DNA of 64,000 nt from Bacteroidia bacterium (GTDB lineage: Bacteria > Bacteroidota > Bacteroidia > Bacteroidales > GWA2-32-17). The notes beneath the pieces are model-generated. The model was not told the origin of the DNA and did not search any database. It saw only the letters and a list, made by a program, of their open reading frames with translations. Below, piece by piece: positions 30,004 through 58,969 of this stretch. Each line of letters begins with the position of its first letter. Position 1 is the stretch's first letter. The translations under genes were made by a program, and so were the position numbers. The DNA lies in assembly GCA_016218155.1 (NCBI GenBank), contig JACREQ010000111.1, positions 31,035 to 95,034 of the forward strand, in the 5' to 3' direction.

Positions 30004-30016
30004 ATTTAAAAATAAG

Positions 30017-33512: not shown

Positions 33513-33540
33513 AAACTTATTTTCTTACAATAGAATATAT

Positions 33541-33727: not shown

Positions 33728-33790
33728 TAATAATTAAGTAAAGCATATTCTTAATTATATAAAATACAAAAACAATTTAACTCCTTAAAT

Positions 33791-36499
33791 ATGAAAAAGC
33801 AATTTTACTCAACTAACAAATTTATTGTCTCAATATTTATGACAATAATTATAATCGTTCCCCTATTTATAAAGGCACAAACAACAACTGTTTTCTCAGA
33901 TAATTTTAATACCTCAATGGGTACTGGCTATACAACCTCACAAGGCACTATTGGTTCAAGTACAAGTTGGTTAATGAAAACAGCTTCCAGTTCATTTGAA
34001 GCAAAAATAGATGGAGGAATTTTAAATTTAAAAACGTCTGGAACAGGTTCTGGTGCAATTTACGCATATACAAACACAAGTTCGTTTTCTGCACCATATA
34101 CTACACAACTTAATTCTAATATTGGTGTTGTAACCTGGACATTTAATATGAGACAAATTAGAACTGATCCAAGCGGAATGTCGTCTGGTTCATACGGAGC
34201 TGCAGTAATATTGGCCTCCTCCACTTCAAATGTTCTTTCATCAACAGGTTCTTCGGGAGGTATAGGTTATGCGGTTTATTTCGGAACAAGTGGTTCTACT
34301 GATCCAATTTATTTAGCCCGATACTCAAATGGCATTCGAAGCGGAACAATTACACCAATAATAACATCTAATACATCAGGTTTAACAGATTTTGGTGCAG
34401 ATTATTTAAGTGTAAAAGTTACTTATAATCCATCTTCAAATAGCTGGGAGCTTTTTCTAAGAAACGATGGTAGTACTGCATTTTCCGATCCTTCTTCAGG
34501 CACATTAATATCTCAGGGAACTGCAACTAATAACACATATACAGGAACTAGCCTGGGTTTTATGGGTGCTGTATGGAACGGAAGTTCAACAGCAAACCAG
34601 ACTGCATTTTTTGACAACTTTAAAGTAACTGTTAAAAAATTAGACCAAACTATTTCCTTTGAAGCATTATCAGATAAAACATATGGTGACCCTGCTTTTA
34701 ACTTAACGGCAACTGGAGGTGCATCCGGAAATCCTGTTACTTTCTCAAGTTCAAATTCTTCAGTTGCAACTTGTAGTGGAACAAATGGTTCAACAGTAAC
34801 AATTGTTGGGGTTGGTTCTACTTCTATTACTGCATCGCAAACCGGAGACGCAAATTATAATGCTGCTTTACCTGTTACACAAAATTTAACTGTAAATTCT
34901 GCTCTTTACACAGTAACTTTTAATGTTACAGATGGAATAAATCCTGTTCCTGGTGCTGTTGTTTCATTTAATAGTCTTACCCAGCTAACAAATAGTATGG
35001 GAACAACTGTTTTTACAAATATAATAACTGGTAACAATCAAGCATATTCCATTTCAAAAAACGGATATAACACAATTAACAGCTCCTTAAATGTAGCATA
35101 TCAGGATATTGTTATTAACAACACTTTTGGAAGCCAAACCGCAACAAATCTTGTTGTTATTGGAACACCAACTGCAAATACTGCAACACTTGGCTGGAGT
35201 GGAAATGGAGCAACAAATTATCAGATATTATATTATATTAACGGTTCTACAAATTATTTTCTACAGTCAACAACAGCAAGTCCGTTCACAATACAGGCAC
35301 TTGAACCTAACACAATATACAATTGCAGAATTAGAAGTCTAATAGGTGGAATATACAGTTCATATTCTCCTATTGTAAGTTTTGTAACATCTAGCGGCAC
35401 CTCAATTCTTGCGACAAATTTAGCAGTTCAAGGAACACCTACAGTCAATTCTGTTACGTTAATCTGGAATGGAAGCGGAGCAACCAATTATCAGATTCAA
35501 TATAATCCTACAGGAACTTCAGAATATCATATTTACACTGCTAGTTCAAGCCCAGTAACAATTACAGGTCTAACACAAAACACTACCTATGACTGCAGAA
35601 TAAGAACTTATTCGGGTGGTATGTACACATCTTATTCTCAAGCGATCTCTTTTACAACACCTAATTACCTTTCTGTAACTGCAACAAATCTAGCAGTTCA
35701 AAGTATTGGTGCAAATTCTGCAACACTAACATGGACAGGATCTGGTGCAACGTATTACCAAATTCAATACTTTATTAATGGCTCTACCGAGTATTTCTTT
35801 CAAAATTCATCAACAGGACCATTTACTTTACAAGCTCTGCAACCAAATACAACCTATAATTGCAGAATTAGAACATATAATGGAGGTTCATTTACTTCAT
35901 ACTCTTCTATAGTAAGTTTTACAACCTCTAACGGAAGTTCTGTTCTTGCTACTAATTTATCAGTTCAGGGAATACCAACTGCAACTACTGCAACGCTTTT
36001 GTGGAATGGAAGTGGAGCTACAAGCTATCAGATTCAGTATTATGTTACAGGTACAACAAACTACAAATTTCAAAGCTCTACTTCAAGTCCTGTTACATTA
36101 ACAGGTTTATTACCTAACACAAATTATGATTGCAGAATAAGAACTTATTCCGGTGGCATTTATACATCATATTCGCCTGTTACTACTTTTACTACTGCTT
36201 CGTTAGCTAAATATATAGCAGAGTTAGAATCAATTTCAAAAGATCCTATTTCAGAAGCTGTGATTTATCCTAATCCCGCTATTGACTTTTATAATTTAGA
36301 TTTCTATTCTGAAACTGAAGGAACAGTTAGTTTATCAATATATAGTATTGATGGCAAACTTTATGAAAGTAGGATAATTGAAACTTCTTTGGGTTTAAAT
36401 CACTTTGAGCTTAAAACTCCTGATATTTCAACGGGAATTTACTATATAATGTTAAATAAAGGTGATTTTACCAGTAAATTAAAACTAATTAAACAATAA
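33791..36499 (+). CDS. T9SS-secreted surface protein (lectin/LamG-like head, Ig-like domain, CarboxypepD-like domain, 4 FN3-like repeats, CTD)
   Basis: 902 aa with a signal peptide. The S/T/G-rich head ends ...TAFFDNFKVTV (concanavalin-like feel). An Ig-like block follows (ISFEALSDKTYGDPAFNLTATGG...ITASQTGDANYNAA). After YTVTFNVTDGINPVPGAVVSF come 4 repeats, ending in the CTD YPNPAIDFYNLDF...GIYYIMLN...KLIKQ. Confidence 0.8.
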   Translation: MKKQFYSTNKFIVSIFMTIIIIVPLFIKAQTTTVFSDNFNTSMGTGYTTSQGTIGSSTSWLMKTASSSFEAKIDGGILNLKTSGTGSGAIYAYTNTSSFSAPYTTQLNSNIGVVTWTFNMRQIRTDPSGMSSGSYGAAVILASSTSNVLSSTGSSGGIGYAVYFGTSGSTDPIYLARYSNGIRSGTITPIITSNTSGLTDFGADYLSVKVTYNPSSNSWELFLRNDGSTAFSDPSSGTLISQGTATNNTYTGTSLGFMGAVWNGSSTANQTAFFDNFKVTVKKLDQTISFEALSDKTYGDPAFNLTATGGASGNPVTFSSSNSSVATCSGTNGSTVTIVGVGSTSITASQTGDANYNAALPVTQNLTVNSALYTVTFNVTDGINPVPGAVVSFNSLTQLTNSMGTTVFTNIITGNNQAYSISKNGYNTINSSLNVAYQDIVINNTFGSQTATNLVVIGTPTANTATLGWSGNGATNYQILYYINGSTNYFLQSTTASPFTIQALEPNTIYNCRIRSLIGGIYSSYSPIVSFVTSSGTSILATNLAVQGTPTVNSVTLIWNGSGATNYQIQYNPTGTSEYHIYTASSSPVTITGLTQNTTYDCRIRTYSGGMYTSYSQAISFTTPNYLSVTATNLAVQSIGANSATLTWTGSGATYYQIQYFINGSTEYFFQNSSTGPFTLQALQPNTTYNCRIRTYNGGSFTSYSSIVSFTTSNGSSVLATNLSVQGIPTATTATLLWNGSGATSYQIQYYVTGTTNYKFQSSTSSPVTLTGLLPNTNYDCRIRTYSGGIYTSYSPVTTFTTASLAKYIAELESISKDPISEAVIYPNPAIDFYNLDFYSETEGTVSLSIYSIDGKLYESRIIETSLGLNHFELKTPDISTGIYYIMLNKGDFTSKLKLIKQ
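35138..36199 (+). repeat. 4 tandem ~89-aa FN3-like repeats (coding)
   Basis: Same unit family as in the two upstream genes. Confidence 0.8.
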
Positions 36500-37516: not shown

Positions 37517-38737
37517 CTATTTGTTATTAATTAAATCAACCATAGTTTTAACTCTGTGTTCATAATTATTATTAGATCCTATTACATTTTCAATATAAGT
37601 ATTATATAAGTTAATCTTTTGGGAATAATTATCAGGAAATTTAAGTAAATCATCTAATTGCTCATTGTTATGAATTCTAATTCCACAATCATTAAATAAC
37701 AACAGATTTGTTTCATTAACACCGGGGTAATCAAACACAAATAATGGTTTTCTTAAAATTACTGCACCAAATAATGCGGTGCTATAATGACCCGCAACAA
37801 TTGTAGAATTTCCTATTAATTCAAAAACATCAGATACATCTGAAATAATAATTCCGGGTAAATCAGATAATCCTTCTTTATACCTTTCAATTGACTCGAT
37901 AGGATGAAGTTTTATAACAAATTTTAATCCTCTGCCAATTACTGTTTTTGCAATTTCCTTCAAATAGTTAAATTCTTCATCATAATTTAATGCACCAACT
38001 TTATGAAATACAAAAGGCTGATGAATATATAAAAAAACTTTGTCGTCGGAAGTATTAATCTTTTTTTGAGGTATTGGTTTTTGTGTTACCGGATAACCAG
38101 AAAATGCAACAGAATTCTCATTAAAACTAAAAAAAGGATTTACCTGTTTTAAACTGTTTTTAGAATATAATAAAGCGCAACTAAACTTTGCTCCAGAGTA
38201 ATTCTTTCTTTTCATTGCATTATATAAAATGCCAAATTCTTTTTTTGCTTTTACTCCTTTCAATAAAACAAATTGCAAATATTTAATACTATATTTAAAA
38301 TATCTCTTAATTGTTGCAATTTTATCAGGCGGATCAATAAATGCAGATAACGCACCCTGAGTTGTTAACCCATGTTCGATAAACACAGATGGCACACAAC
38401 AATGTGCAGCAAGTCGTATTATTAATATATCGAACATCGATTTAAAGTTATAAGATACAATTGCTATAGGAGCTACAGATTTTATAAGGAGTACAATTTT
38501 TCTTACATTTAATTTACTTATTTCATAAATTTTGTATTCTGGTTTATAGCCATCATCCTTTGTTAAGTGCGAAGTTAAAGCTGATGTATGTATTACAACA
38601 AAATCATATCCTAACTCTTTAAACTCTTTATAATAAGGCTCTACATAGTTTTTTAACTGAGATGTGTTTCTTGCAAAAAAAACAATAGTTCTATTGTTTA
38701 ATTTACTTTCAGCAATATTGTAAGTTCTTTTATCCAA
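37517..38737 (-). CDS. GT-B-like transferase of uncertain family (TagF/CDP-glycerol glycerophosphotransferase-like or bacterial sialyltransferase-like, has an HP motif)
   Basis: 406 aa. The blocks [10 protein letters not shown] (His-Pro motif) and [25 protein letters not shown] resemble the C-terminal half of TagF-type and capsule/polysialyl-type transferases. I cannot assign a family by eye. Confidence 0.45.
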
Positions 38738-42106: not shown

Positions 42107-42808
42107 TTAAGATTCTTCTAAATCTGATTTAATAATTAAATGTCTTATTTTGCTAAATTTGATACTATCAATTAATTCAGGTTTTGCAGGATTACCTTTG
42201 TAAACTTTATTTGGCAATGTGTTTTCTAACAATACAGATCCTGCAATTATAAAATTATTTTCTGCAATTTTGATCAAATCTGGAATAGATGCATTTATTC
42301 CTATAAATGAACCTTCGCCTATTTCAGAAAAACCTGCTACAACAACATTTGAAGAAATAAAACAATGATCTTTAATTTTTGCCCTATGCCCTATTGTATT
42401 ATTTGACCATAGAATAACATTATTTCCAATTTCAACATTGTATTGTAAAATATTACCTTCAAATATAAAACAATTCTCTCCAATTTTTACATTATGCCAC
42501 ACAAATGCTTTGGGACTTATATATGTTGCAAAATTATATCCCATCAGTTTAGTTTCAAAATAAAATCGTTTGCGCAACGTATTCAATAATGTTGAAGATA
42601 TAGCTGTAAAAAGGTAAAACTCACTAGGAGGAAAGAGTACTTTTAATTCTTCATATGGTATTACTGTTATTCCGTTTATGGTTTGGTGTTTAATATATCT
42701 TTTTTCAACACAAAATGCAACAACTTCATATTCTCCATTTTCACTGAAATATTCATGAGCTATTTCTGCAAAATCTCCAGCACCAATTATTATTAACTTT
42801 TTTTTCAT
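42107..42808 (-). CDS. NeuD/PglD-family sugar acyltransferase
   Basis: 233 aa. An N-terminal Rossmann-like block KKLIIIGAGDFAEIAHEY is joined to a C-terminal LbH domain (IGENCFIFEGNILQYNVEIGNNVILWSNNTIGH...). Confidence 0.75.
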   Translation of the reverse strand: MKKKLIIIGAGDFAEIAHEYFSENGEYEVVAFCVEKRYIKHQTINGITVIPYEELKVLFPPSEFYLFTAISSTLLNTLRKRFYFETKLMGYNFATYISPKAFVWHNVKIGENCFIFEGNILQYNVEIGNNVILWSNNTIGHRAKIKDHCFISSNVVVAGFSEIGEGSFIGINASIPDLIKIAENNFIIAGSVLLENTLPNKVYKGNPAKPELIDSIKFSKIRHLIIKSDLEES

Positions 42809-42830
42809 TTAATATTTACTGTTTGGATAA

Positions 42831-43793
42831 TTATTCAAATAATATTTTTTCATTTGTTGAATACTCATAATGATCGTAAACTATAGTTCTGGCTCCAAAG
42901 CCCTCTTTTTGAAAAATTAATTTTGTATTTAAAAATTTCCCAGAATTTAAAGTTGAATTTCCGAAATCAAAATAAGACATTTCCGAATATACTTCATTAA
43001 TTAAAAAATTAAAAAGAAAATCTAAGCTACCGTTTACCTTCCCATCAAAACTTGCACTAATGTATTGGCAATGTGCAATTTTATTTTCTTCAAAAATTAA
43101 TACTCCTGCTTCAATTTTACTACAATTTTCTGCTACAAAGAGTTTAATGTTTTGTGGAAACTTTTCTGCTAAATACTCTATTTCTGAAAGAGAATGAATC
43201 GCTTTAACTCCATGTTTGTTTAACAAATTATTATTTAACAAATCCCAGTATTCTTTATAATTATTTGTTTGTCGTCCTACTATGCCGAGTTTTGCTGCCT
43301 TCTTAATACCCCTTTTTCGTAATTCCGAGAATGGTAGCTTATTTCTAAAATCAATACAAGAGGAAGCTAAAGATGCTATTTTTTGTGCATTGAGATTAAA
43401 CATTATATAAATATCTTCTTGAGAAGGAATACTATGATATATAAAAGGTATTGGCTTATAAACTACTTTTTCAATCCCTAAATGCTTTAGAAACGAGTTG
43501 ATTTCATTAAAAATACTAATAACCTCTGTAATATAAATTTTTTTTGGGAGAATTATTCCACCATAGGTTAAACCTTGATGTGAATAATATATTTTTTCTT
43601 TTATTGTTCCAGGCAATAATGCCATTAATTTATTTTCAGAAAAAATCATTAATGAAGAGTCAGGGAAAATATGTTGATGATATTCAATAAAAGTTCTATT
43701 AAATAAAAAAGTTCCATTTTTACTTTCCAATAAAAAATTATTCCAAATATCTTTATTTTCTTGTTTATAAAATTCAATTTTTATGTCTTTCAT
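42831..43793 (-). CDS. FemAB-like / GNAT-fold acyl- or aminoacyl-transferase
   Basis: 320 aa. The two-lobed pattern (WNNFLLESKNGTFLFNRTFIEYH... and ...KLFVAENCSKIEAGVLIFEE) resembles FemAB-like GNAT proteins found in glycan loci. This is a by-eye assignment. Confidence 0.5.
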   Translation of the reverse strand: MKDIKIEFYKQENKDIWNNFLLESKNGTFLFNRTFIEYHQHIFPDSSLMIFSENKLMALLPGTIKEKIYYSHQGLTYGGIILPKKIYITEVISIFNEINSFLKHLGIEKVVYKPIPFIYHSIPSQEDIYIMFNLNAQKIASLASSCIDFRNKLPFSELRKRGIKKAAKLGIVGRQTNNYKEYWDLLNNNLLNKHGVKAIHSLSEIEYLAEKFPQNIKLFVAENCSKIEAGVLIFEENKIAHCQYISASFDGKVNGSLDFLFNFLINEVYSEMSYFDFGNSTLNSGKFLNTKLIFQKEGFGARTIVYDHYEYSTNEKILFE

Positions 43794-43802
43794 TTTTTTG
43801 AA

Positions 43803-44621
43803 TTATATCTTTTTACCAGAAATAATACCATACCCCCAAACTCCAGAATAATAAACCTTCTCTAAAAAATCACATGAGTGACTAAAATTAAAAATATCTT
43901 CTTTAACAAATGATTTATTTACTTCGGCTCCGTTTTTTTCTAAATTCTCTTTCCAATATCTAATTGTTGGTATTACGTTTTTTGAAATATCTTCTTTTTC
44001 AATTTTATTAAAACCGCTTGTTTTTAATAATTCTTCATAAAACTCTAAAGTATCCAATCGCGCTTTTCCGAAAACTTTTTCTAGAATTTTTAAGGAATTT
44101 TGCCATTCGAAAATTTCTTTTGCTGTTGGATATTTGTTAAATGTTAAATCACACAATACCATTTGGCCTCCTGGTTTTAAAACCCGAAATGCTTCGTTTA
44201 TAAGCTTTTGTTTATCATCAATTAAATGCGACATTTCCATAATCCAAACCACATCAAACGAGTTTTCTGAAAATTGATTATCAATTGCATCTCGAAAATG
44301 AAATTTAACTTTTTGTGAAATATTTTCACTTTGTGCCATTTTATTTGCAGCGCTTATACCATTTTTACTGTTAGAAATTCCATCAACTGTACAATTGAAT
44401 TTTTTGTGCAAATACGCAGCAGGATTGCCAATTCCGCATCCTACATCTAAAAGTTTTTTTGTCCCATCAAGATTAATTTTCTCATACATTTTATCAATTA
44501 GCAAATCGGTTGCTTTTTCTAAAGTATCGGTTTCAGGACGAAAATATCCCCAATGAAAATTTTTCCCTAATAAAAACTCCCATGGAGTAGTTATATAATC
44601 GTAATGTTGGCTATTATCCAT
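43803..44621 (-). CDS. class I SAM-dependent methyltransferase
   Basis: 272 aa. Motif I is LLDVGCGIGNPA, and VLKPGGQMVLCD lies later in the sequence. Confidence 0.8.
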   Translation of the reverse strand: MDNSQHYDYITTPWEFLLGKNFHWGYFRPETDTLEKATDLLIDKMYEKINLDGTKKLLDVGCGIGNPAAYLHKKFNCTVDGISNSKNGISAANKMAQSENISQKVKFHFRDAIDNQFSENSFDVVWIMEMSHLIDDKQKLINEAFRVLKPGGQMVLCDLTFNKYPTAKEIFEWQNSLKILEKVFGKARLDTLEFYEELLKTSGFNKIEKEDISKNVIPTIRYWKENLEKNGAEVNKSFVKEDIFNFSHSCDFLEKVYYSGVWGYGIISGKKI

Positions 44622-44630
44622 ATTTAAATT

Positions 44631-45359
44631 TTAAATTGTTCCAGAATCTACAAATATATTCTGACCAGTTATTGATTTTGAATCATCTGCCAATAAAAAC
44701 GAAATAGTTTTAGCTACACTCCCCAAATCAGTTGCTTCTTTTAAAGAGGTTCTTTTATATATTCTATTCTTTTGTTCATCTGTTAATGTTGCACTCATTT
44801 CAGTTTCCATAAAACCAGCAACTATACAATTTGAACGAATTCCTATTTCGCCCCATTCGCGAGCTGTATTTTTCGAATATGCTTCTAAAGCCCCTTTGCT
44901 GGCAGCATACATCGACAATCCTTTGTATCCTGTATGTACACTTATTGATGAAATATGAATTATACTTCCTTTTGTTTTATGAAACAACATATTTCTAATA
45001 ATATTAGATGTCATTAACATTGGAGCAAATACATTTAAGTTAAACATTTTATCAAGTGGTTCGTGCATTGTGTTAGTAATTATTTCGTCATAGGCTAATG
45101 CAGCATTATTAACAAAACCATCAATTTTAACATTATACGATAAAAAGTTTTTAAAAACTTTTTCTTTTATGTTTTTTGAATCAGATAAATCAAAAAGATC
45201 AATAAATAGATTTTCTGGAAATTGATTTTTCAATCTTTCTAATTCACTCGTTAGGCTTCTGTTTATTGCATAAACATTACATCCATTTTGTAAAAGCTCT
45301 TTTGCAATTTCTAATCCTAATCCCTTTGAAGCTCCGGTTAAAACTATATTTTTGTTCAT
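44631..45359 (-). CDS. short-chain dehydrogenase/reductase (FabG-like ketoreductase)
   Basis: 242 aa. It has VLTGASKGLGLEIA (TGxxxGxG), NNAA, and the catalytic YAASK. Confidence 0.85.
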   Translation of the reverse strand: MNKNIVLTGASKGLGLEIAKELLQNGCNVYAINRSLTSELERLKNQFPENLFIDLFDLSDSKNIKEKVFKNFLSYNVKIDGFVNNAALAYDEIITNTMHEPLDKMFNLNVFAPMLMTSNIIRNMLFHKTKGSIIHISSISVHTGYKGLSMYAASKGALEAYSKNTAREWGEIGIRSNCIVAGFMETEMSATLTDEQKNRIYKRTSLKEATDLGSVAKTISFLLADDSKSITGQNIFVDSGTI

Positions 45360-45362
45360 CTG

Positions 45363-46577
45363 CTATTTTGATTTGCCATTATTAGTCATTTCAACTTTAT
45401 CAATAAACTTATATATTCTAGGTATTTTAAAATCCTGTAACTTCGTATTCAAAAAAGTTCTTATCTGTTCTTCTGTTAACTTGCAATTATTTTCAAAAAG
45501 AATTTCTGCACAAACAATATTTCCTAACACAGAATTTTTTTTTGCAAACACCTTTACGTAACTTACCTCGGGCAATTGTATAATGGTTTCTTCTATTTCT
45601 TTAGGATTAATTTTATATCCACCAGAATTTATCATCTCGGTTTTTCGTCCATTGAATTTAAATAAAAGTGGCACCTCTGAAACAATTTGCACTAAATCGC
45701 CAGTATAATACCAATCATCAGCTAATTGAAAACTTTTAGCTAATAATGATTTAAAAATCTGCAATTCATTATCAACTATTTTAATTTTACCTGCATATTG
45801 TTCAGGAATACTAAATAATTCGCCTTTTGATGTGAGTAATGAACCAACTTCTGTTGATGCATATATGTTATAAAATTTCGCATTCGGAAAAAACTGTTTC
45901 ATTTTTTCAATTAGGCTATCATCAGTTTTTTCGCCACCAAACGTTACTTTACTAATAAGATTAAATGCTTGTTGAAATGGTAAAAGCAATCTATAGAAAG
46001 TAGGTGTTGCTGATATATTTGTTATATTATACTTATTAAATTGTATAAATATGTTTTCTCTTTTTTGTGAAAAGAGATAAATTAATGAGTTTTTATTAAA
46101 AAATGCCTGAAAGAATACCTGTAAGCCAGCCATATGAGTTGGATTATAACAATATGCCCACGCATTATCAGAGTATTTATTATTTATTTTAATATTACGT
46201 GTTAAACTCTCAACCGAATGAATTACTTTTTTTGGTGTACCTGTAGTTCCAGAAGTAAATAAAGTAATTTCAGAATTTGAAGCCTTAACTCTTTCTATTA
46301 TTAAATCAATATTATTTATATCAATTTTAATCTTTGTTGTTTCAAAATACTTTTGTTCAATTTCAAGCTTTATTATTTCATTGTCGCTTATATCATTGTC
46401 TACCAAAATAATATTACTACCCGAAACTAACCCTTTTATTAAGTTTAATAAATATTTCCCAATATTAGGATTTTTATAACAAGGTGTATAATCATTAGCA
46501 CTATTTAAATAATCTAATAAATATTGATAAGTAAAGCTTGTGTGACTATTTTCGTCAACAAAGAACAAATTATTCAT
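45363..46577 (-). CDS. AMP-forming adenylating ligase (acyl- or aminoacyl-carrier-protein ligase)
   Basis: 404 aa. The AMP-binding core LFTSGTTGTPKKV is present, with YYTGDL and GYKINPKEIE. It is short for the family and is immediately followed by an SDR and preceded by a carrier protein. Confidence 0.8.
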   Translation of the reverse strand: MNNLFFVDENSHTSFTYQYLLDYLNSANDYTPCYKNPNIGKYLLNLIKGLVSGSNIILVDNDISDNEIIKLEIEQKYFETTKIKIDINNIDLIIERVKASNSEITLFTSGTTGTPKKVIHSVESLTRNIKINNKYSDNAWAYCYNPTHMAGLQVFFQAFFNKNSLIYLFSQKRENIFIQFNKYNITNISATPTFYRLLLPFQQAFNLISKVTFGGEKTDDSLIEKMKQFFPNAKFYNIYASTEVGSLLTSKGELFSIPEQYAGKIKIVDNELQIFKSLLAKSFQLADDWYYTGDLVQIVSEVPLLFKFNGRKTEMINSGGYKINPKEIEETIIQLPEVSYVKVFAKKNSVLGNIVCAEILFENNCKLTEEQIRTFLNTKLQDFKIPRIYKFIDKVEMTNNGKSK

Positions 46578-46579
46578 TT

Positions 46580-46813
46580 TTACAAAATATTCAATTCTCT
46601 TTTAACTTCTCCAATAGTATTAATAAGACCTTTTTCAAATACATCTATACCAAACTTTTCTTCAATCCTTACGGTTAATTCGGCCAGATTAAATGAATCA
46701 AAACCAAGATCGTTTCTTAAATGCATATTATCATTAACTGATTCTACAGTTTTTTTGTTAGCATTAGCTAAAACAGTATTAATTATTTCCAAAAGTTCGT
46801 TCATATAAAACAT
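46580..46813 (-). CDS. acyl/peptidyl carrier protein
   Basis: 77 aa with the motif LGFDSFNLAELTVRIEEKFG (attachment Ser). Confidence 0.8.
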   Translation of the reverse strand: MFYMNELLEIINTVLANANKKTVESVNDNMHLRNDLGFDSFNLAELTVRIEEKFGIDVFEKGLINTIGEVKRELNIL

Positions 46814-47238
46814 TATTTTAATATTAAAAAATCATTATACTTCCTTAAATAATCACTTTCTTCATATTTCTCTGAAGTCAGTACTAAACAAATTGCTCCT
46901 GATGAAAAATTTAATTCGTGAGCCCAAATACCTGGAGGGATATGCAAAGCATAAAATGGTCTGTTTAAAAAAATATTTCTATTATTTGTTCCATCATCTA
47001 TCTCAACTTCAAAACTACCGCTGGCTGCAACTAAAAACTGATGACACTCCTTGTGTGCATGTGCCCCACGAGATTCTCCACCAGGTATATCATATATATA
47101 AAACACTCTTTTAATCTCAAAACATAGTTGTTCATTGTTAGTAACAACAGTAATATTTCCTGCCGGATTATGAATTTTTGGTAATTGCACAATTTTGCAA
47201 TCATCAATAGTACTTGTATGAAAATTTATTTTTTGCAC
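46813..47238 (-). CDS. WxcM/FdtA-like cupin (dTDP-4-keto-6-deoxyhexose 3,4-ketoisomerase), copy A
   Basis: 141 aa. Family blocks are LPKIHNPAGNITV, FEIKRVFYIYDIPGGESRGAHAHK and ALHIPPGIWA. Confidence 0.8.
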   Translation of the reverse strand: MQKINFHTSTIDDCKIVQLPKIHNPAGNITVVTNNEQLCFEIKRVFYIYDIPGGESRGAHAHKECHQFLVAASGSFEVEIDDGTNNRNIFLNRPFYALHIPPGIWAHELNFSSGAICLVLTSEKYEESDYLRKYNDFLILK

Positions 47239-47627
47239 AGCTTTAAAAAATCATGAAAATTATAAATATAATCATCGGGGTTATAAACTTGAGAAGCTAA
47301 TATAAGACATAATGAGTTAGTCGAAAAATTTTCCATTCTTCTCCAAATTCCATTTGGCACATAAAGCCCATAATAAGATCTGTTTAAAGAAAACACTTCT
47401 TCTTTAACTCCATTATGAAGAACTACATCAAAACTTCCGGATAAAGCAATTACAAATTCATGTAATGTTTTATATGCATGTCCTCCACGCACCTGTCCGC
47501 CGGGCACATCATAAATCCAGTATGCTCGTTTTATTTCAAAAGGAATATGATTTCCGCCTTCAAGAAATGATAAGTTTCCGCGAGGGTCGGTTATTTTTGG
47601 AAGATCAATTCGGTATACGTTATCCAT
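47226..47627 (-). CDS. WxcM/FdtA-like cupin (3,4-ketoisomerase), copy B
   Basis: Family blocks are LPKITDPRGNLSFLE, FEIKRAYWIYDVPGGQVRGGHAYK and GLYVPNGIWR. I chose the Met at 47627 (MDNVYRIDLPKI). The ORF-track start at 47684 would overlap the upstream gene by 29 nt. Confidence 0.75.
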   Translation of the reverse strand: MDNVYRIDLPKITDPRGNLSFLEGGNHIPFEIKRAYWIYDVPGGQVRGGHAYKTLHEFVIALSGSFDVVLHNGVKEEVFSLNRSYYGLYVPNGIWRRMENFSTNSLCLILASQVYNPDDYIYNFHDFLKLCKK

Positions 47628-47655
47628 TATCGATTTGGGATTTAGGATTTGGGAT

Positions 47656-48756
47656 TTAAAATTTATTGATTTTTCCAACAACATATTCTGCTTCCTGTAT
47701 AGTTAAAACAGGGCTAATTGGTAAACTTAATACCTGATCGTGTATTGTTTCAGTAATAGGAAATGACAAGTTATTCCATTCTTTATATGCAATTTGTTTA
47801 TGTGGCGGTACAGGGTAATGTATTACAGTTTGAATACCATTATCTAATAAATATTTTTGTAACTCGTCCCGTTTTTCTGTTTTTATTACAAAAAGATGCC
47901 ATACCGGTTTTCCGTAATTCGCAACAATTGGCAATATAATTTTGGAATTTTTAATTTTAGACAGATAGTAATCTGCAATTTTTTGACGATGTTCGTTTTC
48001 TGTATCCAAATATTTTAATCTAATAGAAAGTATAGCTGCCTGTATTTCATCCAAACGACTATTAGTACCCTTATACAAATTATAATATTTTTTATGAGAG
48101 CCATAATTTCTTAAAGCATTTACAGTTTCTGCCAATTTATCATCGTTTGTTGTTATAGCACCTCCATCGCCCAAAGCTCCAAGATTTTTTCCGGGATAAA
48201 AACTAAACCCCGCCGCATCTCCAAAGCTTCCGGCTTTGATTTTATTGCACGTTGCACCATGCGCCTGGGCAGCATCTTCAATTACAAGTAAATTATGTTT
48301 TTTTGCAATCTCAAGAACATGGGTCATGTCAGCACATTGTCCGTATAAATGAACCGGCATTATTGCCTTCGTTTTAGATGAAATCTTTTCCTCTATTTTT
48401 AGTGAATCAATATTAAAAGTATTAGATTCAGGTTCAACCAAAACCGGCACTAAACCATTTGCAGAAATTGATAATATAGTAGCAATATATGTATTTGCAG
48501 GAACAATTATTTCATCGCCTTGCTTTAATTTTCCTATCTCAATATAAGCGCGAAATATTAGTATTAATGCATCTAAACCATTTGCTACACCAATGCAATG
48601 TTTTACTCCAATATATTTTGCAAAATTCTTTTCGAATTCTTCAACCTCTTTTCCTAAAATAAACCATCCGGATTCTATAACACTGTTTATTGCATTTTGA
48701 ATCTCAATATTATATGGCTTAATTATTTTTTGTATATCAAGAAATTTTATCTCCAT
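47656..48756 (-). CDS. DegT/DnrJ/EryC1/StrS-family sugar aminotransferase (FdtB/QdtB-like)
   Basis: 366 aa. It has DAAQAHGA and the PLP-Lys block [16 protein letters not shown]. It is adjacent to the FdtA-like cupins. Confidence 0.85.
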
Positions 48757-52374: not shown

Positions 52375-53088
52375 TTAATCGTACATACAGAATTCTATCT
52401 GCATAATTGGTTGCTTTGTCATATTATAGTATAACATTCTTATTATTTTTTTTATCATATTATCATTTCTACTTAAAAAAGAAATATTATACCCTCTTGT
52501 TTCAACATTTTTAAAACCCAATTTTTTAAAAGTATTTTCGAATTCATCAAGTGTATAACTAATCTGATGTCCATCCTGTTCAAAAGAATGACCGCAGTTA
52601 GGGCATATTCTATAAGTTAAAGGCAACTTATGAGGAACAGCACCAACTACCTTACCTCCGTTCTTTAAAAGCTTTTTTAGGTTTTCTACAACTTTAATCA
52701 ATTCGTCATGACGAAAATGTTCAAGCACATGATTTACTAAAACAACATCATACTTAACCTTAACTTCACTTTCATTCATAAGATCCACAACCCTAAAATC
52801 AGCGTTAGCAATTTTTTTTTTCAAAAATTCATCCCTTGTAATTTCAATATTCTTTGGTGAAATATCGGCACCACAGACCCATTTAAAAATTGAAGAAAGT
52901 AACTCTAATGTTTTACCGTTTCCAAAACCAATCTCCATTAAATCACAATTCACTATTTTCTTTTCTTTTAGTAAATCTATAATATAATAATATGTAGGAT
53001 CATTTTTTCCCGACTTTCCTGAATATGCTTCACGACTTACCGTCTGGTATGCATCCCATATCTCCGGTTTATTTGTTTTATTTGCCAT
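52375..53088 (-). CDS. class I SAM-dependent methyltransferase with a Cys/His zinc-ribbon-like insert
   Basis: 237 aa. Motif I is LMEIGFGNGKT, LKNGGKVVG lies later, and a CPNCGHSF element is present. The gene contains an A10 coding homopolymer. Confidence 0.75.
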   Translation of the reverse strand: MANKTNKPEIWDAYQTVSREAYSGKSGKNDPTYYYIIDLLKEKKIVNCDLMEIGFGNGKTLELLSSIFKWVCGADISPKNIEITRDEFLKKKIANADFRVVDLMNESEVKVKYDVVLVNHVLEHFRHDELIKVVENLKKLLKNGGKVVGAVPHKLPLTYRICPNCGHSFEQDGHQISYTLDEFENTFKKLGFKNVETRGYNISFLSRNDNMIKKIIRMLYYNMTKQPIMQIEFCMYD

Positions 53089-53610
53089 TTATTTGTTTTT
53101 AAATTTCGACATAATTATTACATCCTCATATTTATTATTTATAAAAACATGCTCAGCCAAAATTCCTTCTCTTTTAAAACCATTATTTTCATATAATTTA
53201 ATTGCGTTAATATTATTTGACAATACTTCTAAAGTAATTTTGTGTAAATTCAATGTTGCAAAAGCATATTCAACTAAAAGGCTTAATGCTTCTTTACCCA
53301 TTCCTTTCCCTTGATTCTCTTTATCGCCAATAATAATTCCAAAATAACAATTCCGATGAATCCAATTTATTGATTTAAGCATAGTATAACCAATTACTTT
53401 CTCCTTTATATCTGTTATAGTAAAAAAGACTTCATTATTTTGAACATTGTTGGCTACTTTATTGTACCAATTATCATCAAGTTCCTTTGTTACAGGAAAT
53501 GGATGAAGAATAGCCTGATTTTTTATTTCTAAATCATTTCTCCATTGATTGAATAAAGTTAAATCTTCTTTTTCAATCATTCTTAGTTTAACATTTTTTC
53601 CTATGAGCAT
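53089..53610 (-). CDS. GNAT N-acetyltransferase (RimL/PseH-like)
   Basis: 173 aa. It has LRMIEKEDLTLFNQWRND and the acetyl-CoA loop QGKGMGKEAL. Confidence 0.8.
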   Translation of the reverse strand: MLIGKNVKLRMIEKEDLTLFNQWRNDLEIKNQAILHPFPVTKELDDNWYNKVANNVQNNEVFFTITDIKEKVIGYTMLKSINWIHRNCYFGIIIGDKENQGKGMGKEALSLLVEYAFATLNLHKITLEVLSNNINAIKLYENNGFKREGILAEHVFINNKYEDVIIMSKFKNK

Positions 53611-53612
53611 AG

Positions 53613-54797
53613 TTATAATACTTTAATTTTGGATTGTAATATTTCTGAGTATTTTAATGCATTTTCGATAGCAGAATGCCTGTTATTGCTTTTAACAATT
53701 ACAAAACCGGCTCTCTTTGAAGAATCGGTTATTTCTGATGTAAGTTCTCCTTCTTTTAAAAATATATTGGCATGAACTAAATGCTCATCATTAAGTAAGT
53801 CACTCCACTGTTCTACTTTAACTACTGTTTTACCGGCAGGTAAATTCAGATACCTAATTACTGCAGCATTCTCACTTCTTACAGGGACTCCCATAAAATC
53901 ATTCATTGCAATCTGAACAGATAATTTCTCTATATTAATTCCAGTTGACAATGGGACTAAATGGGAGGTAATATAATCACCGCCCAAACGTGCACCAATT
54001 TCAACCATTTTAGGTCCTTTGTTTGTTATTTTAAGCTCAGCATGAGTTGCACAATTATCAAGTTCTAAAGCAATAATAGCTTTTTTAACAATCTCTTCAA
54101 TAGCTTCTTTTTCATAGTCAGAAATATTTGCAGGCTGTATGTGTGCCATTTCTACCGTGTGAGGAAATGGAGTTATTTCTTTTTCTGTTATTTGAATAAC
54201 AAATGTTTTTCCATTGTTAGTAACACTTTCCACACTATATTCATGTCCTTCAATAAACTCTTCAACTATTGCTTTACCTGTTGATGAAAAAGCAACTGTT
54301 AGATTAAAATATCTTTCTAAATCAGCTTTATTCTCTATTCGAAAAACACCTCTGCTCGAGAAAGAATCAACTGGCTTTAAAATTGCAGGAAATAATATAT
54401 TTTTATCATCAATTTCTGACGGAGAATTTATTAAATAACCTTTAGCGCAAGGCACTTTATTTTTAATAAAAGCTTGTTTCATCAGGTATTTATCACGAGC
54501 TCTTTTTATTCCTTCAACTGTTGGAAATCTATATTTTTTTTCTTCTGCCAATTGCGCCATTAACAATAAAGGATTCTCCATTTGGCATGTAACAATACCT
54601 TTAATATTATATTTTTCAGCAATCTCCTTAGTACCTTCATAATCTTTTGGAGCTACAACTTCAAATATATCTGCATATTTTTTTCCTAATGCATTTTCAT
54701 TTGGATCTATAACAATAGTTCTATAACCAAGTTCTTTTGCTCCAGTAATTAAAGTTTTCTGGTTGTCGCCACCCCCAAAGATTAAAATGCTCTCCAT
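53613..54797 (-). CDS. ATP-grasp ligase (L-amino-acid-ligase/amidoligase-like)
   Basis: 394 aa. The pre-ATP-grasp N-terminus ILIFGGGDNQ is followed by FPAILKPVDSFSSRGV, VEEFIEGHEYSVE and EIGARLGGD. Confidence 0.8.
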   Translation of the reverse strand: MESILIFGGGDNQKTLITGAKELGYRTIVIDPNENALGKKYADIFEVVAPKDYEGTKEIAEKYNIKGIVTCQMENPLLLMAQLAEEKKYRFPTVEGIKRARDKYLMKQAFIKNKVPCAKGYLINSPSEIDDKNILFPAILKPVDSFSSRGVFRIENKADLERYFNLTVAFSSTGKAIVEEFIEGHEYSVESVTNNGKTFVIQITEKEITPFPHTVEMAHIQPANISDYEKEAIEEIVKKAIIALELDNCATHAELKITNKGPKMVEIGARLGGDYITSHLVPLSTGINIEKLSVQIAMNDFMGVPVRSENAAVIRYLNLPAGKTVVKVEQWSDLLNDEHLVHANIFLKEGELTSEITDSSKRAGFVIVKSNNRHSAIENALKYSEILQSKIKVL

Positions 54798-54803
54798 TAT
54801 AAA

Positions 54804-55982
54804 CTAAACATTAAATACTTTTTTAACTGCATTAACAACATTCTTTTTTTCACTTTCAGTTAGTGATGGATAAATGGGCAATCTTAACAACCGACTAAAA
54901 AATTCCATACTACCTGGAAAATCTATATCCTGCCCTAAATTTGTATAATATTTATTTCTATGCAACGGGGTATAATGTACATTTGACATAACACCTTCAG
55001 CCCTTAAAGCATCCATAATCCAATATTTTTCTTCAGGTGGAACCAATATTCCAAACAAATGCCAGTTATGCTCTGAACCATCAGTAATTCTCATAAAATC
55101 AAGACCCGTAATGCCCGATAAATGCTCCTTATAATAATGTGCAATACTTTTTCTTTCGGCATTCATACTATCAAGTTTTTTTAGCTGCGAAAGTCCTAAT
55201 GCACCTAAAATATTAGACTGTACATAAGAATTCCCTATATCAACGTATTCGTAAAAACCTCTTGTTTTATTATCTGTAAGAAATGAATATTTATCAGTTC
55301 CTTTCTCCCTCATTATTTTAATCCTGTCTGCTATTTCGTCAGAGTTAGTTGTTACGGCACCACCTTCACCTGATGTCAGGTTTTTTGTGCCATGAAAACT
55401 AAAAGTAGAAACATCTGCCAATGCACCTGTTTTTACACCACGATAAACAGAACCAATTGATTGCGCAGTATCGTGAACGACATATAAATTATTTCTTCTT
55501 GCTATTTTGTTAATTTCATCCATTTCTGCCGGAATACCGCCATAATCAACTGGTGCAATAGCAACAGTTTTTTCAGTAATTAATGCTTCGAGTTTTGAAA
55601 TATCTAAACTACCATTATCTGAATAGACATCAGCAAGAACTACTTTTAAATTATTGTAAATAGCACCAAGTGCAGTAGAAGTATATGTAAAATCGGGAAT
55701 AATAACTTCACTGCCTTCTTTAAAATTTTTTACTCTGAACGCAAGCTCCAATGCACTTGTTGCAGAATTAACAAATAGTACATGTTTTACTCCTAGATAT
55801 TCTGCCATTTCTTTTTCAAATTCCCTGCAAGCAGGACCATCACCTGAAACAAAAGTAGATCTTAAGGCCTTATCAACAGCCTCATAATCATCTTCCTGTA
55901 AAAACGGCTTGTGAATTAGTATGGGTTCGTTTGAAATAGGCTTACCACCATTAATAGCTAATGCCGGATCGTTTTTTTTCAT
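54804..55982 (-). CDS. DegT/DnrJ/EryC1/StrS-family sugar aminotransferase
   Basis: 392 aa. It has HDTAQSIGS and the PLP-Lys block SFHGTKNLTSGEGGA. Confidence 0.85.
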   Translation of the reverse strand: MKKNDPALAINGGKPISNEPILIHKPFLQEDDYEAVDKALRSTFVSGDGPACREFEKEMAEYLGVKHVLFVNSATSALELAFRVKNFKEGSEVIIPDFTYTSTALGAIYNNLKVVLADVYSDNGSLDISKLEALITEKTVAIAPVDYGGIPAEMDEINKIARRNNLYVVHDTAQSIGSVYRGVKTGALADVSTFSFHGTKNLTSGEGGAVTTNSDEIADRIKIMREKGTDKYSFLTDNKTRGFYEYVDIGNSYVQSNILGALGLSQLKKLDSMNAERKSIAHYYKEHLSGITGLDFMRITDGSEHNWHLFGILVPPEEKYWIMDALRAEGVMSNVHYTPLHRNKYYTNLGQDIDFPGSMEFFSRLLRLPIYPSLTESEKKNVVNAVKKVFNV

Positions 55983-58945: not shown

Positions 58946-58969
58946 CTTTATTGTAAATAGTTATAACAA

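Follow-up and report, generated by a model that had tools for sequence, protein, structure and literature searches.

A minus-strand operon joining 3-amino-3,6-dideoxyhexose genes, an acyl carrier module and a Fem-type protein in a Bacteroidales polysaccharide locus

The nine genes and the sugar-forming set

Nine open reading frames were located on the minus strand between positions 42107 and 48756 of the window (the whole stretch of DNA analyzed, 64,000 nucleotides). All lie where a sequence-only reading had placed them, on the strand it gave, and their families are backed by highly significant matches. From upstream to downstream they are the following.

47656..48756, minus strand: FdtB/QdtB-like PLP sugar aminotransferase, 366 aa (PF01041, 4e-113)
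47226..47684, minus strand: FdtA-family cupin, upstream copy (PF05523, 1e-50; RGGHAYK)
46813..47238, minus strand: FdtA-family 3,4-ketoisomerase, downstream copy (PF05523, 7e-51; RGAHAHK)
46580..46813, minus strand: acyl carrier protein (ACP), 77 aa (PP-binding, 2e-8)
45363..46577, minus strand: short ANL adenylate-forming ligase, 404 aa (AMP-binding and AMP-binding_C)
44631..45359, minus strand: FabG-like ketoreductase, SDR (adh_short_C2, 8e-46)
43803..44621, minus strand: class I SAM methyltransferase, MT (CMAS, 2e-23; also Methyltransf_11/25/31)
42831..43793, minus strand: Fem-type tandem-GNAT protein, here GNAT312 (TIGR03019 FemAB, 1e-8; structure model)
42107..42808, minus strand: PglD/NeuD/VioB-type LbH N-acyltransferase (TIGR03570, 180 bits, cutoff 160.8)

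Because intergenic distances range from -29 to +22 bp and the next gene follows after 240 bp, the nine genes fit a single operon within a larger polysaccharide locus. This locus extends from about 36.5 kb past 64 kb and also carries a legionaminic-acid (Leg) pathway, Wzx, Wzy and glycosyltransferases. The cassette had been described as having no ketosynthase, and none was found in the window. RmlA/RmlB orthologues were not found in the window either, which counts against the pathway proposed below and against naming the nucleotide carrier of the sugar.

The first three genes were recognized as the 3,4-ketoisomerase/aminotransferase set by PF01041, PF05523 and PDB matches to FdtA, in agreement with the sequence-only reading. 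The FdtB-like aminotransferase shows a lysine motif in its translation, shares 55-65% identity with the DegT genes found last in FdtA operons of other loci and would, from context only, act at C3. The downstream FdtA copy keeps H-x-H in the canonical RGAHAHK and matches 5tpu (2e-30) and 2pa7 FdtA (1e-28). For the upstream copy, with top PDB matches 5tpu, 7n67 and 2pa7, a variant motif was found in which Tyr replaces the second catalytic His (RGGHAYK); the H-A-Y/F variant is kept in the upstream copy of tandem FdtA pairs at other loci.

The acyl carrier module and its relatives

The carrier has a serine, Ser39, within a DSF motif. The ligase carries the core motifs A3 TSGTTGTPK, A5 YASTE, A7 YYTGD and A8 GRKTEMINSGGYKI and the invariant A10 Lys402, and its fold is nearest to MenE, oxalyl-CoA synthetase and 4-chlorobenzoyl-CoA ligase. 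The SDR (motifs TGASKGLG, NNAA and YAASK) scored 156 bits against the 3-oxoacyl-ACP reductase model, which is under cutoff. Its top PDB matches are the ACP-dependent ketoreductases CylG, FabG and MupS, and at 56-66% identity across loci it is the best-conserved member of the triad.

Of 80 species-level loci, which are mostly from Bacteroidota, 76 have the ACP immediately upstream of the ligase and keep the order ACP>ligase>SDR. Triad neighborhoods are polysaccharide regions with sugar aminotransferases, LbH transferases, NeuB, Bac_transf, Wzx and glycosyltransferases. This conserved context supports the proposal of a dedicated acyl-carrier machine made up of ACP, ligase and ketoreductase. The gene combination, which had seemed unfamiliar, is not rare (the ligase is carried by at least 161 species genomes), and the absence of a ketosynthase or FabH is the norm (62/80 triad loci).

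The methyltransferase matched RebM (3bus, 2e-28) and a D-glucose O-methyltransferase (6uv6) best in the PDB; TylM1 and DesVI were absent among its best PDB matches. Since all relatives examined have an MT gene after the triad (L088, L096/97, L098/99, L180 and L181), in three sugar contexts (Fdt, NeuB/Leg and other), the gene was assigned by position to the acyl module. The resulting four-gene module is portable and widespread, as its conserved context shows, and its chemistry would be that set out below.

The survey also covered co-occurrence with fdtA/fdtB. Ten of the 80 loci, together with locus L096, share the recurring order FdtA-FdtA-ACP-ligase-SDR-(MT)-QdtC-like LbH-FdtB; the QdtC homologue of these operons matches 3fs8 (3e-57). 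Being flanked by FdtA and FdtB and accompanied by a QdtC-like transferase, the triad is tied to the 3-amino sugar. In L096, RmlB/RmlA-like genes are followed by FdtA-FdtA-ACP-LIG-SDR-MT-LbH258-DegT, and the window shares 86% (ACP), 70% (LIG), 85% (SDR) and 84% (MT) identity with it. In its closest relatives the ACP-ligase-ketoreductase-MT block precedes a QdtC-like transferase that would use the 3-amine directly, and the window itself is apparently a mosaic in which an operon of the FdtA-FdtA-GNAT312-PglD type gained this block.

GNAT312 and the PglD-type enzyme

GNAT312 has no Pfam match, and its score against TIGR03019 FemAB (34 bits) is far under the cutoff of 260, which counts against the role proposed here. 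An AlphaFold2 model (pLDDT 93, pTM 0.89) has a Fem-type tandem-GNAT fold. The best Foldseek matches were Sbb17/Sba18, FemA, FemX and MprF (TM 0.6-0.74), whereas acetyl-CoA tandem GNATs reached TM 0.35-0.56 only. Its FQKEGFG aligns with RFKLGFGG of Sbb17, FK.GFG being common to both.

The GNAT312 family adjoins FdtA or FdtB in 40 of 43 loci, 5 with PglD and 1 with a QdtC-like gene. In operons lacking an ACP it is flanked by FdtA and FdtB, and in the surveyed loci it never adjoins an ACP. From this distribution GNAT312 is taken to be an independent FdtA/FdtB partner outside the carrier machinery in which it had been included. Its fold and context suggest that it probably adds an amino acid from aminoacyl-tRNA to the sugar 3-amine; no dedicated tRNA genes occur near it, which speaks against this role. 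As GNAT312 and the acyl cassette never occur together in the 166 other loci surveyed, a hand-off between the two is without comparative support.

The PglD-type enzyme, the sole LbH protein of the operon, scored 29.6 bits against PglD_N and matched VioB (2e-16) and PerB (4e-11) in the PDB; the His of its 'IGH' aligns with the conserved His. It is the candidate for the last, capping reaction. Its identity is 34-48% to PglDs from GNAT312 operons lacking an ACP (48% for L159, 45% for L156) versus 28-33% to ACP-adjoining PglDs, and by this measure it is orthologous to the former and may use acetyl-CoA. Owing to this relationship, direct PglD transfer of the ACP-borne acyl group to the sugar amine, which had been expected to replace acetylation, becomes just one option among several.

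Proposed product, alternatives and known systems

We tentatively propose, at a probability a little short of even, that FdtA/FdtB, the acyl module, GNAT312 and the PglD-type enzyme together produce a nucleotide-activated 3-amino-3,6-dideoxyhexose (Fuc3N/Qui3N type) whose N-substituent is composite and other than acetyl, destined for a Wzx/Wzy-dependent polysaccharide. The most likely product would be an NDP-3-amino-3,6-dideoxyhexose with an aminoacyl spacer and a methylated hydroxyacyl cap, in which the acid and the amino acid, like the enzyme that draws on the acyl-ACP, are inferred. Judged by family membership, NDP-4-keto-6-deoxyhexose would be converted to the 3-amino sugar by the FdtA pair and FdtB. 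The 404-aa ligase would adenylate a small keto or hydroxy acid and load it onto the dedicated ACP, the FabG-like SDR would set the hydroxyl by reducing the ACP-bound acyl group, and the RebM-like methyltransferase would methylate the tethered acyl, likely on the oxygen of that hydroxyl. The Fem-type tandem GNAT would then aminoacylate the 3-amine from aminoacyl-tRNA, as its fold and context suggest, and in the last and weakest step the PglD-type LbH enzyme would move the acyl group from the ACP to the newly introduced alpha-amine as a cap. Our best guess for this group is a C4 3-hydroxyacyl such as 3-hydroxybutanoyl, methylated in this operon; pyruvate (via lactyl to 2-methoxypropanoyl) and other acids are just as compatible. 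The generic fold and sequence neighbors of the ligase count against naming the acid; to our knowledge, free acetoacetate is not an obvious metabolite of anaerobic Bacteroidota.

Direct acylation of the 3-amine by the PglD-type enzyme, with GNAT312 redundant or otherwise employed (e.g., in forming an O-aminoacyl ester), is unlikely, though credible. It agrees with the 10 loci and L096, where the same module (70-86% identical in L096) is followed by one QdtC-like LbH and FdtB without GNAT312, and aaPGS/MprF, makers of aminoacyl esters, are among the fold neighbors of GNAT312. However, the GNAT312 family is the sole acyltransferase candidate in most FdtA-FdtB operons and should thus act on the 3-amine itself, so that two enzymes would compete for one amine. 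Moreover, the PglD-type enzymes studied to date (VioB, PerB and PglD) act, as far as we know, on C4 amines.

Two separate decorations are improbable to a similar degree: GNAT312 could be an ordinary acetyl-CoA N-acetyltransferase replacing FdtC (giving Fuc3NAc/Qui3NAc), while the ACP module and PglD acylate a different amine of the repeat unit, on legionaminic acid or on the 4-amino sugar made by the second DegT (54804-55982). The module is portable and lies beside NeuB/Leg genes in L028, L065, L098 and L180, the window holds both the Leg pathway and the second aminotransferase, NCBI annotates GNAT312 as an N-acetyltransferase, and 4-amines are the classical substrates of PglD-type enzymes. 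Against this, the nine genes are translationally packed together with the Fdt genes, and both other routes come with an acyltransferase gene of their own, a PglD-like gene (62148-62825) for the Leg pathway and a GNAT (53089-53610) for the second DegT. The window, unlike L180, has no deacetylase for freeing the Leg N5 amine, and the structural neighbors of GNAT312 are aminoacyl-tRNA enzymes.

DltA/DltC-style loading of an amino acid, followed by reduction or methylation and transfer, had also been suggested and is very doubtful. Weak DltA and DltC matches occur among many others, DltA structures are among the distant fold neighbors of the ligase, and aminoacyl amides on Qui3N are known chemistry (PMC3210612). 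However, the A4 region NPTHMAGL aligns with PLFHVHGL of acid-CoA ligases, the His-containing and not the Asp-containing amino-acid type. The carrier scored 17 bits against DltC models (cutoffs 52-68) and about 34 against generic ACP NCBIfam models, its invariant partner is a FabG/CylG/MupS-like ketoreductase without a role on an amino acid, and amino-acid addition is already explained by the Fem-type enzyme. Least probable is an ordinary acyl-CoA ligase, with ACP and SDR serving lipid metabolism beside the sugar genes by chance, which suits its source name 'acyl-CoA ligase' and best NCBIfam matches (fatty-acid and OSB CoA ligases, all far under cutoffs) but not the ACP>ligase>SDR order kept in 76/80 loci within polysaccharide regions, nor the triad embedded between FdtA and FdtB.

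Of the sequence-only reading, the sugar genes, the carrier machine and the link between them are supported; DltA-style loading is disfavored, and the FemAB-like protein is placed outside the carrier machine. By joining 3-amino-sugar genes, a portable acyl module and a Fem-type enzyme, the operon makes an unusual composite amide decoration likely. Matching chemistry, an aminoacyl spacer plus cap, is known from Qui3N(N-acetyl-alanyl) (PMC3210612) and Qui4N(N-3-hydroxybutyryl-alanyl) (PMC7685785), and Orf11 of BD-12 biosynthesis is an earlier example of a Fem-type enzyme that aminoacylates an amino sugar (PMC12945691). The enzymology, which had been called poorly defined, is not wholly so, as predicted analogues are already in print: ACP-dependent N-acylation by PglD homologues for WfpC-G of F. 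psychrophilum (PMC6519341) and the ACP/ligase pair RfbK/L of V. cholerae O1 (PMC12208996).

The operon and its surroundings

All nine open reading frames listed in the sequence-only reading were recovered on the minus strand, and their families were confirmed by Pfam and NCBIfam. They encode an FdtB-type aminotransferase, two FdtA-type ketoisomerases, a carrier protein (ACP), a ligase, a FabG-like ketoreductase (SDR), a class I SAM methyltransferase (MT), a tandem-GNAT protein with a Fem-type fold (GNAT312) and a PglD-type hexapeptide transferase (LbH). Intergenic gaps were -29 to +22 bp, then 240 bp. The polysaccharide locus around the operon extends over at least 27 kb, from ~36.5 kb to past 64 kb, and also contains a legionaminic-acid (Leg) pathway, a second aminotransferase with an ATP-grasp enzyme and a GNAT, Wzy, Wzx and glycosyltransferases. 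Its low end is bordered by T9SS-secreted fn3/SprB-repeat proteins. The features are as follows.

24709-36499, plus strand: three large T9SS-secreted proteins (1764, 1052 and 902 aa) with SprB and fn3 repeats and Por_Secre_tail, abutting the 3' end of the polysaccharide locus
37517-38737: polysialyltransferase-like gene, at the opposite end of the locus from the Leg pathway
42107-48756, minus strand: the nine-gene operon
42831-43793, minus strand: GNAT312
46813-47238, minus strand: downstream FdtA cupin
47226-47684, minus strand: upstream FdtA cupin
52375-55982: second amino-sugar sub-module, with a DegT aminotransferase (4-amino type by best matches), an ATP-grasp ligase, a GNAT and a methyltransferase
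58247-63796: legionaminic-acid-type pathway upstream of the operon, running off the window end, with a LegC-family aminotransferase (cut by the window end), a PglD-like acetyltransferase, NeuB, NeuC, a CBS/nucleotidyltransferase and a cytidylyltransferase

The second sub-module may provide another amino-acid-bearing or acylated sugar of the same repeat unit. RmlA and RmlB orthologues were absent from the window, and the nucleotidyltransferase of L096 (relatives' loci from the surveys are designated by L and a number) matched the Leg-pathway gene at 58970-60019 at only 38%. Promoter and terminator scanning gave nothing above chance, and no RNA families were found by an Rfam search.

The aminotransferase matched PF01041 with 378.8 bits (4e-113), and its translation contains the PLP-binding lysine motif. 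Both FdtA cupins matched PF05523 with ~171 bits versus a cutoff of 23 (about 1e-50 each), as well as PDB entries for FdtA, QdtA and WlaRA/B. The catalytic His-x-His pair, which we take to be His49/His51 of FdtA, is kept in the downstream cupin (RGAHAHK); in the upstream cupin, the second His is replaced by Tyr (RGGHAYK). The tandem pair suggests either a heterodimer in which one of the sites is degenerate or the formation of two products, as for C. jejuni WlaRA/WlaRB. It is a conserved architecture, also present in L011, L016, L020, L041, L046, L087 and L091-L095, with H-A-Y/F always in the upstream copy and H-A-H in the downstream copy. Some loci have both copies fused into one ORF of 274-299 aa, and the single-copy locus L089 carries H-A-H.

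The donor triad and its methyltransferase

Among the epitopes that commonly define the serotypes of O-antigens and capsules are non-acetyl amides on amino sugars (3-hydroxybutanoyl, dihydroxyhexanoyl, N-acyl-aminoacyl); most of the enzymes for their synthesis and attachment have no assignment. Three adjacent genes of the operon, ACP, ligase and SDR, form a donor triad. The ACP (77 aa) matched PF00550 with 34.8 bits versus a cutoff of 20.8 and, in agreement with its earlier reading as a carrier, has a predicted modifiable serine, Ser39 in GFDSFNL (D-S-F). The ligase (404 aa) has the ANL core motifs A3 (TSGTTGTPK), A5 (YASTE), A7 (YYTGD) and A8 (GRKTEMINSGGYKI), together with the A10 lysine K402, which is invariant across the family alignment. 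Its N-terminal subdomain is shortened, the Pfam match beginning at profile position 158. The A4 region NPTHMAGL was aligned with PLFHVHGL (His-type) of an oxalate-CoA ligase, and MenE, oxalyl-CoA synthetase and 4-chlorobenzoyl-CoA ligase were found as fold neighbours. Structure prediction (pLDDT 80) and fold search returned only generic ANL neighbours (TM ~0.4), with no substrate inference. Loading of an amino acid in the DltA/DltC style, put forward in the sequence-only reading, is disfavoured: DltC models gave 17 bits versus 52 and 68 and the DltA model 67 versus 476, far under the cutoffs, and A4 is of the His-bearing acid-CoA-ligase kind, where enzymes for amino acids have Asp. On the strength of the A4 alignment, the fold neighbours and these low scores, the most likely substrate of the ligase is a carboxylic acid rather than an amino acid.

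The SDR carries TGxxxGxG, NNAG-like and S...YxxxK motifs and gave an adh_short_C2-type match (8e-46). Its best PDB matches were CylG, FabG and MupS, all reducers of ACP-bound 3-oxoacyl groups. Since it scored 156 bits against the FabG equivalog, with a cutoff of 298, it is a paralogue of the FabG-like kind, distinct from FabG.

More than 2900 ligase homologues were found, mostly of 403-407 aa. Scanning of GTDB species representatives with the ligase confirmed 161 loci, the best 80 of which were analysed. They are mostly from Bacteroidota (Bacteroides, Prevotella, Parabacteroides, Alistipes, Odoribacter, Paludibacter, Flavobacterium, Cloacibacterium), with a few in Ignavibacteria, Chloroherpeton, Opitutales, Spirochaetaceae and Firmicute MAGs. 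Flavobacterium granuli DSM 19729, Bacteroides heparinolyticus DSM 23917, Parabacteroides goldsteinii and Prevotella micans are cultured bacteria that have the triad. In 76 of these best 80, the ACP lies directly upstream and the SDR directly downstream of the ligase; given this adjacency, the ligase would load the neighbouring ACP. Identity among triad members was highest for the SDR (56-66%) and 42-50% for the ligase. A FabH ketosynthase was present within 9 kb of only 18 of the best 80, so its absence is the norm: the sequence-only reading was correct in finding none in the window, and the 62 of 80 loci without FabH make this less unusual than it had supposed.

The MT family is small (330 proteins at E <= 1e-20). 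All relatives examined come after ACP-ligase-SDR, though the sugar context differs: an Fdt operon in L088 and L096/97, and NeuB loci in L098/99, with a 181-aa hexapeptide protein, and L180, with an unannotated protein and a deacetylase. In L181, two LbH proteins are nearby, one of them PglD_N-type. The top PDB matches were RebM, D-glucose O-methyltransferase and MitM. A role as sugar N,N-dimethyltransferase of the TylM1/DesVI type was rejected, as neither enzyme was among 55 PDB matches and the MT stays with the ACP module. Because of this shared travel with the triad and its closest solved relatives, the MT is assigned to the acyl module (triad plus MT). It would methylate the ACP-bound acyl, the probable site being the hydroxyl that the reductase would set.

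The other partners of the triad vary. One set, typical of gut Bacteroidales such as Parabacteroides goldsteinii, comprises a PglD_N-type LbH with a second ACP, a second ketoreductase (KR), FabH, DegT and Bac_transf. Others include NeuB and metallo-beta-lactamase-fold, PIG-L and aminoglycoside-acetyltransferase-like proteins. An unannotated 320-350-aa protein is paired with a polysaccharide deacetylase, in some cases of the XrtA/PEP-CTERM type TIGR03006, in L008, L012, L037, L043, L050, L058, L060, L063, L067, L070 and L180. This pairing suggests deacetylation followed by re-acylation from the ACP on an already N-acetylated sugar. The recurring deacetylase-paired proteins of 322-349 aa showed no detectable relation to GNAT312 (hhalign probabilities <1%) and gave no NCBIfam matches. 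The extended set, in the order Bac_transf, PglD-type LbH, ACP, KR, FabH, ACP, ligase, SDR and DegT, was observed in L001-L006, L024 and L042. L001-L006 are from P. goldsteinii and gut metagenomes. In all of these capsule loci of gut Bacteroidales, which differ in the rest of their genes, the set lies at the 3' end. It is consistent with a longer dihydroxyacyl group on an initiating 4-amino sugar.

Co-occurrence with fdtA/fdtB, proposed earlier as a check, was found: 10 of the best 80 of 161 loci have the order FdtA-(FdtA)-ACP-ligase-SDR-LbH-FdtB, with an LbH that is a clear QdtC homologue (PDB 3fs8, 3e-57). In L096, which has one of the modules most closely related to that of the window, RmlB-like, nucleotidyltransferase and epimerase genes are followed by FdtA-FdtA-ACP-ligase-SDR-MT-LbH258-DegT, with identities to the window of 86% (ACP), 70% (ligase), 85% (SDR) and 84% (MT), and L088 has this core too. 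As L096, L088 and the 10 loci carry the triad inside Fdt operons, gene context supports the central idea of the sequence-only reading, that the ACP-borne acyl would end on the amine of the Fdt sugar. The LbH proteins found with the module come from subfamilies that are unrelated to one another, and similarity therefore cannot assign the transferase of the window.

In total, the order-invariant triad was found in at least 161 species genomes, among them gut Bacteroides, Parabacteroides, Prevotella and Alistipes and environmental Flavobacterium, and plugs into 3-amino, 4-amino and nonulosonic-acid pathways.

GNAT312, the transfer step and the acyl group

The 'FemAB-like' protein had been counted as part of the carrier machinery. 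Instead, it is an independent partner of Fdt genes. Its family comprises more than 6000 proteins. GNAT312 lies between FdtA and DegT, without an ACP, in Prevotella melaninogenica as well as other Bacteroidota. Scanning of metagenomes confirmed at least 575 of 600 candidate stretches, and context was analysed for the 43 loci, among the matches listed, with at least 2.5 kb on both sides. Within 3 kb, FdtA or FdtB was present in 40 of these 43 listed loci and both in 30, and GNAT312 thus occupies the place of FdtC/QdtC. Other neighbours were a PglD of the window type (5/43) and a QdtC-like LbH (1/43). No ACP, ligase, SDR or MT was found beside GNAT312 in any of the 43.

The structure of GNAT312 was modelled with high confidence (pLDDT 93.2, pTM 0.89). 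Foldseek matches were Sbb17/Sba18, as complexes with the amino-sugar compound streptothrisamine, and FemA, FemX and MprF (TM 0.59-0.74); acetyl-CoA-dependent tandem GNATs fitted more poorly (TM 0.35-0.56). The invariant C-terminal FQKEGFG was aligned with RFKLGFGG of Sbb17 (shared FK.GFG), at a sequence identity to the Fem-type neighbours of only ~12%. GNAT312 had no Pfam match and scored 34.4 (1e-8) against TIGR03019, with a cutoff of 260; some homologues gave weak PF13480 matches. Dedicated tRNA genes were absent from the window, and unrelated tRNAs were present in 2 of 41 loci. GNAT312 may therefore work like a Fem enzyme, going by its modelled fold, and is not a sequence-level member; in view of this and of the lack of dedicated tRNAs, tRNA dependence is argued from structure. 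One Fem-type precedent is Orf11 of BD-12 biosynthesis, which was shown to use Gly-tRNA for glycylation of the streptothrisamine amino sugar (PMC12945691). ORFs of 311-334 aa beside GNAT312 were rejected as further Fem paralogues building a peptide chain, being GH32-like, GT2 or methyltransferase proteins. An amino-acid permease lies between GNAT312 and DegT in L091/L092 (8945-10606), and an ATP-grasp enzyme lies upstream in L089 (6299-7480); these neighbours are circumstantial hints of amino-acid involvement.

The PglD-type enzyme of the window matched TIGR03570, the NeuD/PglB/VioB family (180.1 versus 160.8), and PglD_N (29.6 versus 23.4); in alignments with VioB and PerB, its 'TIGH' His falls on their conserved His. 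It is 48, 45 and 34% identical to the PglD partners of GNAT312, versus 28-33% to PglDs beside carrier proteins. The best matches of GNAT312 (46-52%) and of the PglD-type enzyme (49%) are in ACP-less operons such as L159, L100 and L119, with the order FdtA-FdtA-GNAT312-PglD-FdtB, and the ACP-ligase-SDR-MT block is of the L096 type. By these comparisons, the operon appears to be a mosaic of two operon types. GNAT312 and the module occurred together in none of 166 other surveyed loci. In L156 (6188-8966), also ACP-less, a FabH-like gene lies directly upstream of a PglD-type gene and GNAT312. This neighbour hints that the PglD subfamily can pair with different acyl-donor generators.

The most economical reading, taken tentatively and with nearly as much confidence as doubt, combines GNAT312 aminoacylation with PglD capping by a module-supplied acyl group. 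GNAT312 would aminoacylate the 3-amine; in ACP-less operons, its PglD partner would then cap the new alpha-amine with acetyl, and in the window the inserted module would provide a different cap. The acetyl-cap step matches N-acetyl-alanyl-Qui3N in Aeromonas and Pseudoalteromonas (PMC3210612), and the module-cap step matches N-(3-hydroxybutanoyl)-alanyl on Qui4N (PMC3210612; PMC7685785 for E. coli O123).

Alternatively, the PglD-type enzyme may still use acetyl-CoA, as its orthology with the PglDs of ACP-less operons would favour, and the acyl-ACP would then need another transferase or acceptor.

For capping by the module, the best guess for the acyl group is a C4 3-hydroxyacyl, because, to our knowledge, no other non-acetyl N-acyl group is as common on the amino sugars of bacteria as 3-hydroxybutanoyl, because the reductase resembles FabG, and because FabH additions would extend such a group to 3,5-dihydroxyhexanoyl. 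Other candidates are pyruvate, converted via lactyl to 2-methoxypropanoyl, or other small keto or hydroxy acids. The extension would apply to the 18 of 80 loci in which the triad is joined by FabH, a second ACP and a second KR. 3,5-Dihydroxyhexanoyl has been documented as a substituent in Flavobacterium, and a Wfp cassette lacking a ligase was proposed for it (PMC6519341).

A bolder proposal, considered rather unlikely, is that GNAT312, almost always between FdtA and FdtB in Bacteroidota, represents a new aminoacyl-tRNA-dependent class acting on nucleotide-activated 3-amino sugars, with a product capped here by a methylated hydroxyacyl from a ligase-primed, ketosynthase-free ACP module. If true, an N-(acyl)aminoacyl amino sugar is made in the window, the missing enzymology is found for O-antigen and capsule groups like N-acetyl-alanyl-Qui3N and N-(3-hydroxybutanoyl)-alanyl-Qui4N, and the many operons without a capping enzyme keep a free amine, contributing to zwitterionic polysaccharides.

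The analysis thus defined a donor triad, an accessory MT travelling with the module and a Fem-fold family dedicated to Fdt operons. Should the functions be confirmed, N-acyl decorations could become predictable from sequence for serotyping and glycoengineering, and polysaccharide pathways would be shown to draw on aminoacyl-tRNA.

Comparison with known systems

Anthrose synthesis of Bacillus uses AntD, one of the acyl-CoA-dependent LbH N-acyltransferases, to attach a short hydroxyacyl, 3-hydroxy-3-methylbutanoyl, to an amino-dideoxy sugar which undergoes methylation as well; its donor is an acyl-CoA from CoA-dependent enzymes, with no carrier protein or ligase. The FdtA/B/C and QdtA/B/C pathways to dTDP-Fuc3NAc and dTDP-Qui3NAc share a homologous ketoisomerase and aminotransferase with the operon, and relatives of the cassette contain a QdtC homologue. 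The window, in contrast, lacks an FdtC/QdtC-type acetyltransferase, carries two ketoisomerases in tandem, one of them with a variant active site, and would draw its acyl donor from a carrier-protein module instead of acetyl-CoA. Fem-type enzymes (Orf11, Sbb17/Sba18, FemX), the group nearest to GNAT312 in structure (TM 0.65-0.74), act on an antibiotic intermediate or a peptidoglycan precursor, whereas the presumed acceptor here is a nucleotide-sugar.

The V. cholerae set RfbKLMNO includes LuxC/LuxE-type and alcohol-dehydrogenase-type reductases. A hexapeptide transferase is said, after work of Morona et al. in 1995, to complete the V. cholerae O1 tetronate pathway. In the O-antigen locus of V. 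cholerae O1, the ACP RfbK and the ANL ligase RfbL were proposed to activate 2,4-dihydroxybutanoate, N-acylating perosamine (PMC12208996). A dedicated ACP, a ligase (compared by described role), a proposed short hydroxy acid, an amino-dideoxy sugar and an LbH are common to both; RfbKLMNO is without a FabG-like ketoreductase, methyltransferase and Fem-type enzyme, and its acceptor is GDP-perosamine (C4 amine). As no LuxC/E-type or iron-ADH-type genes were found in the operon, the window system is akin to the tetronate cassette and not a member of it.

In F. psychrophilum, WfpC-WfpG are associated with 3,5-dihydroxyhexanoyl on Qui2NAc4N, and the PglD homologue WfpG was predicted to transfer an ACP-bound hydroxyacyl to the sugar amine (PMC6519341). 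This Bacteroidota O-PS locus likewise has its own ACP (WfpD), ketoreductase (WfpF) and PglD homologue. It differs in being primed by two ketosynthases, in lacking a ligase, methyltransferase and Fem-type GNAT, and in its UDP-4-amino sugar acceptor. No ketosynthase is present in the window, in line with the triad loci lacking FabH, which sets it outside the Wfp type. The triad with FabH, second ACP and second KR (18/80 loci, e.g. P. goldsteinii) looks like a hybrid of the ligase and Wfp designs.

Given the Vibrio and Wfp precedents, carrier-protein-dependent N-acylation of amino sugars is of an already predicted kind, and its principle will not surprise a specialist. The module is defined, widespread and tractable, and GNAT312 is a candidate tRNA-dependent step in polysaccharide synthesis. 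No relevant publication came up in literature searches on this precise set of genes, on PglD enzymes that depend on acyl-ACP or on Fem-type enzymes that act on nucleotide sugars. The sequence-only reading had not recognised the combination; its triad is widespread (161 loci), and the combination as such was found in no published description. Likewise without a published description that we found, and new here, are the ligase-primed triad, its portability and its pairing with a Fem-fold transferase. The system is akin to both RfbK/RfbL and Wfp and a member of neither, since its reductases differ, a ketosynthase is lacking, and a methyltransferase and a Fem-type enzyme are added.
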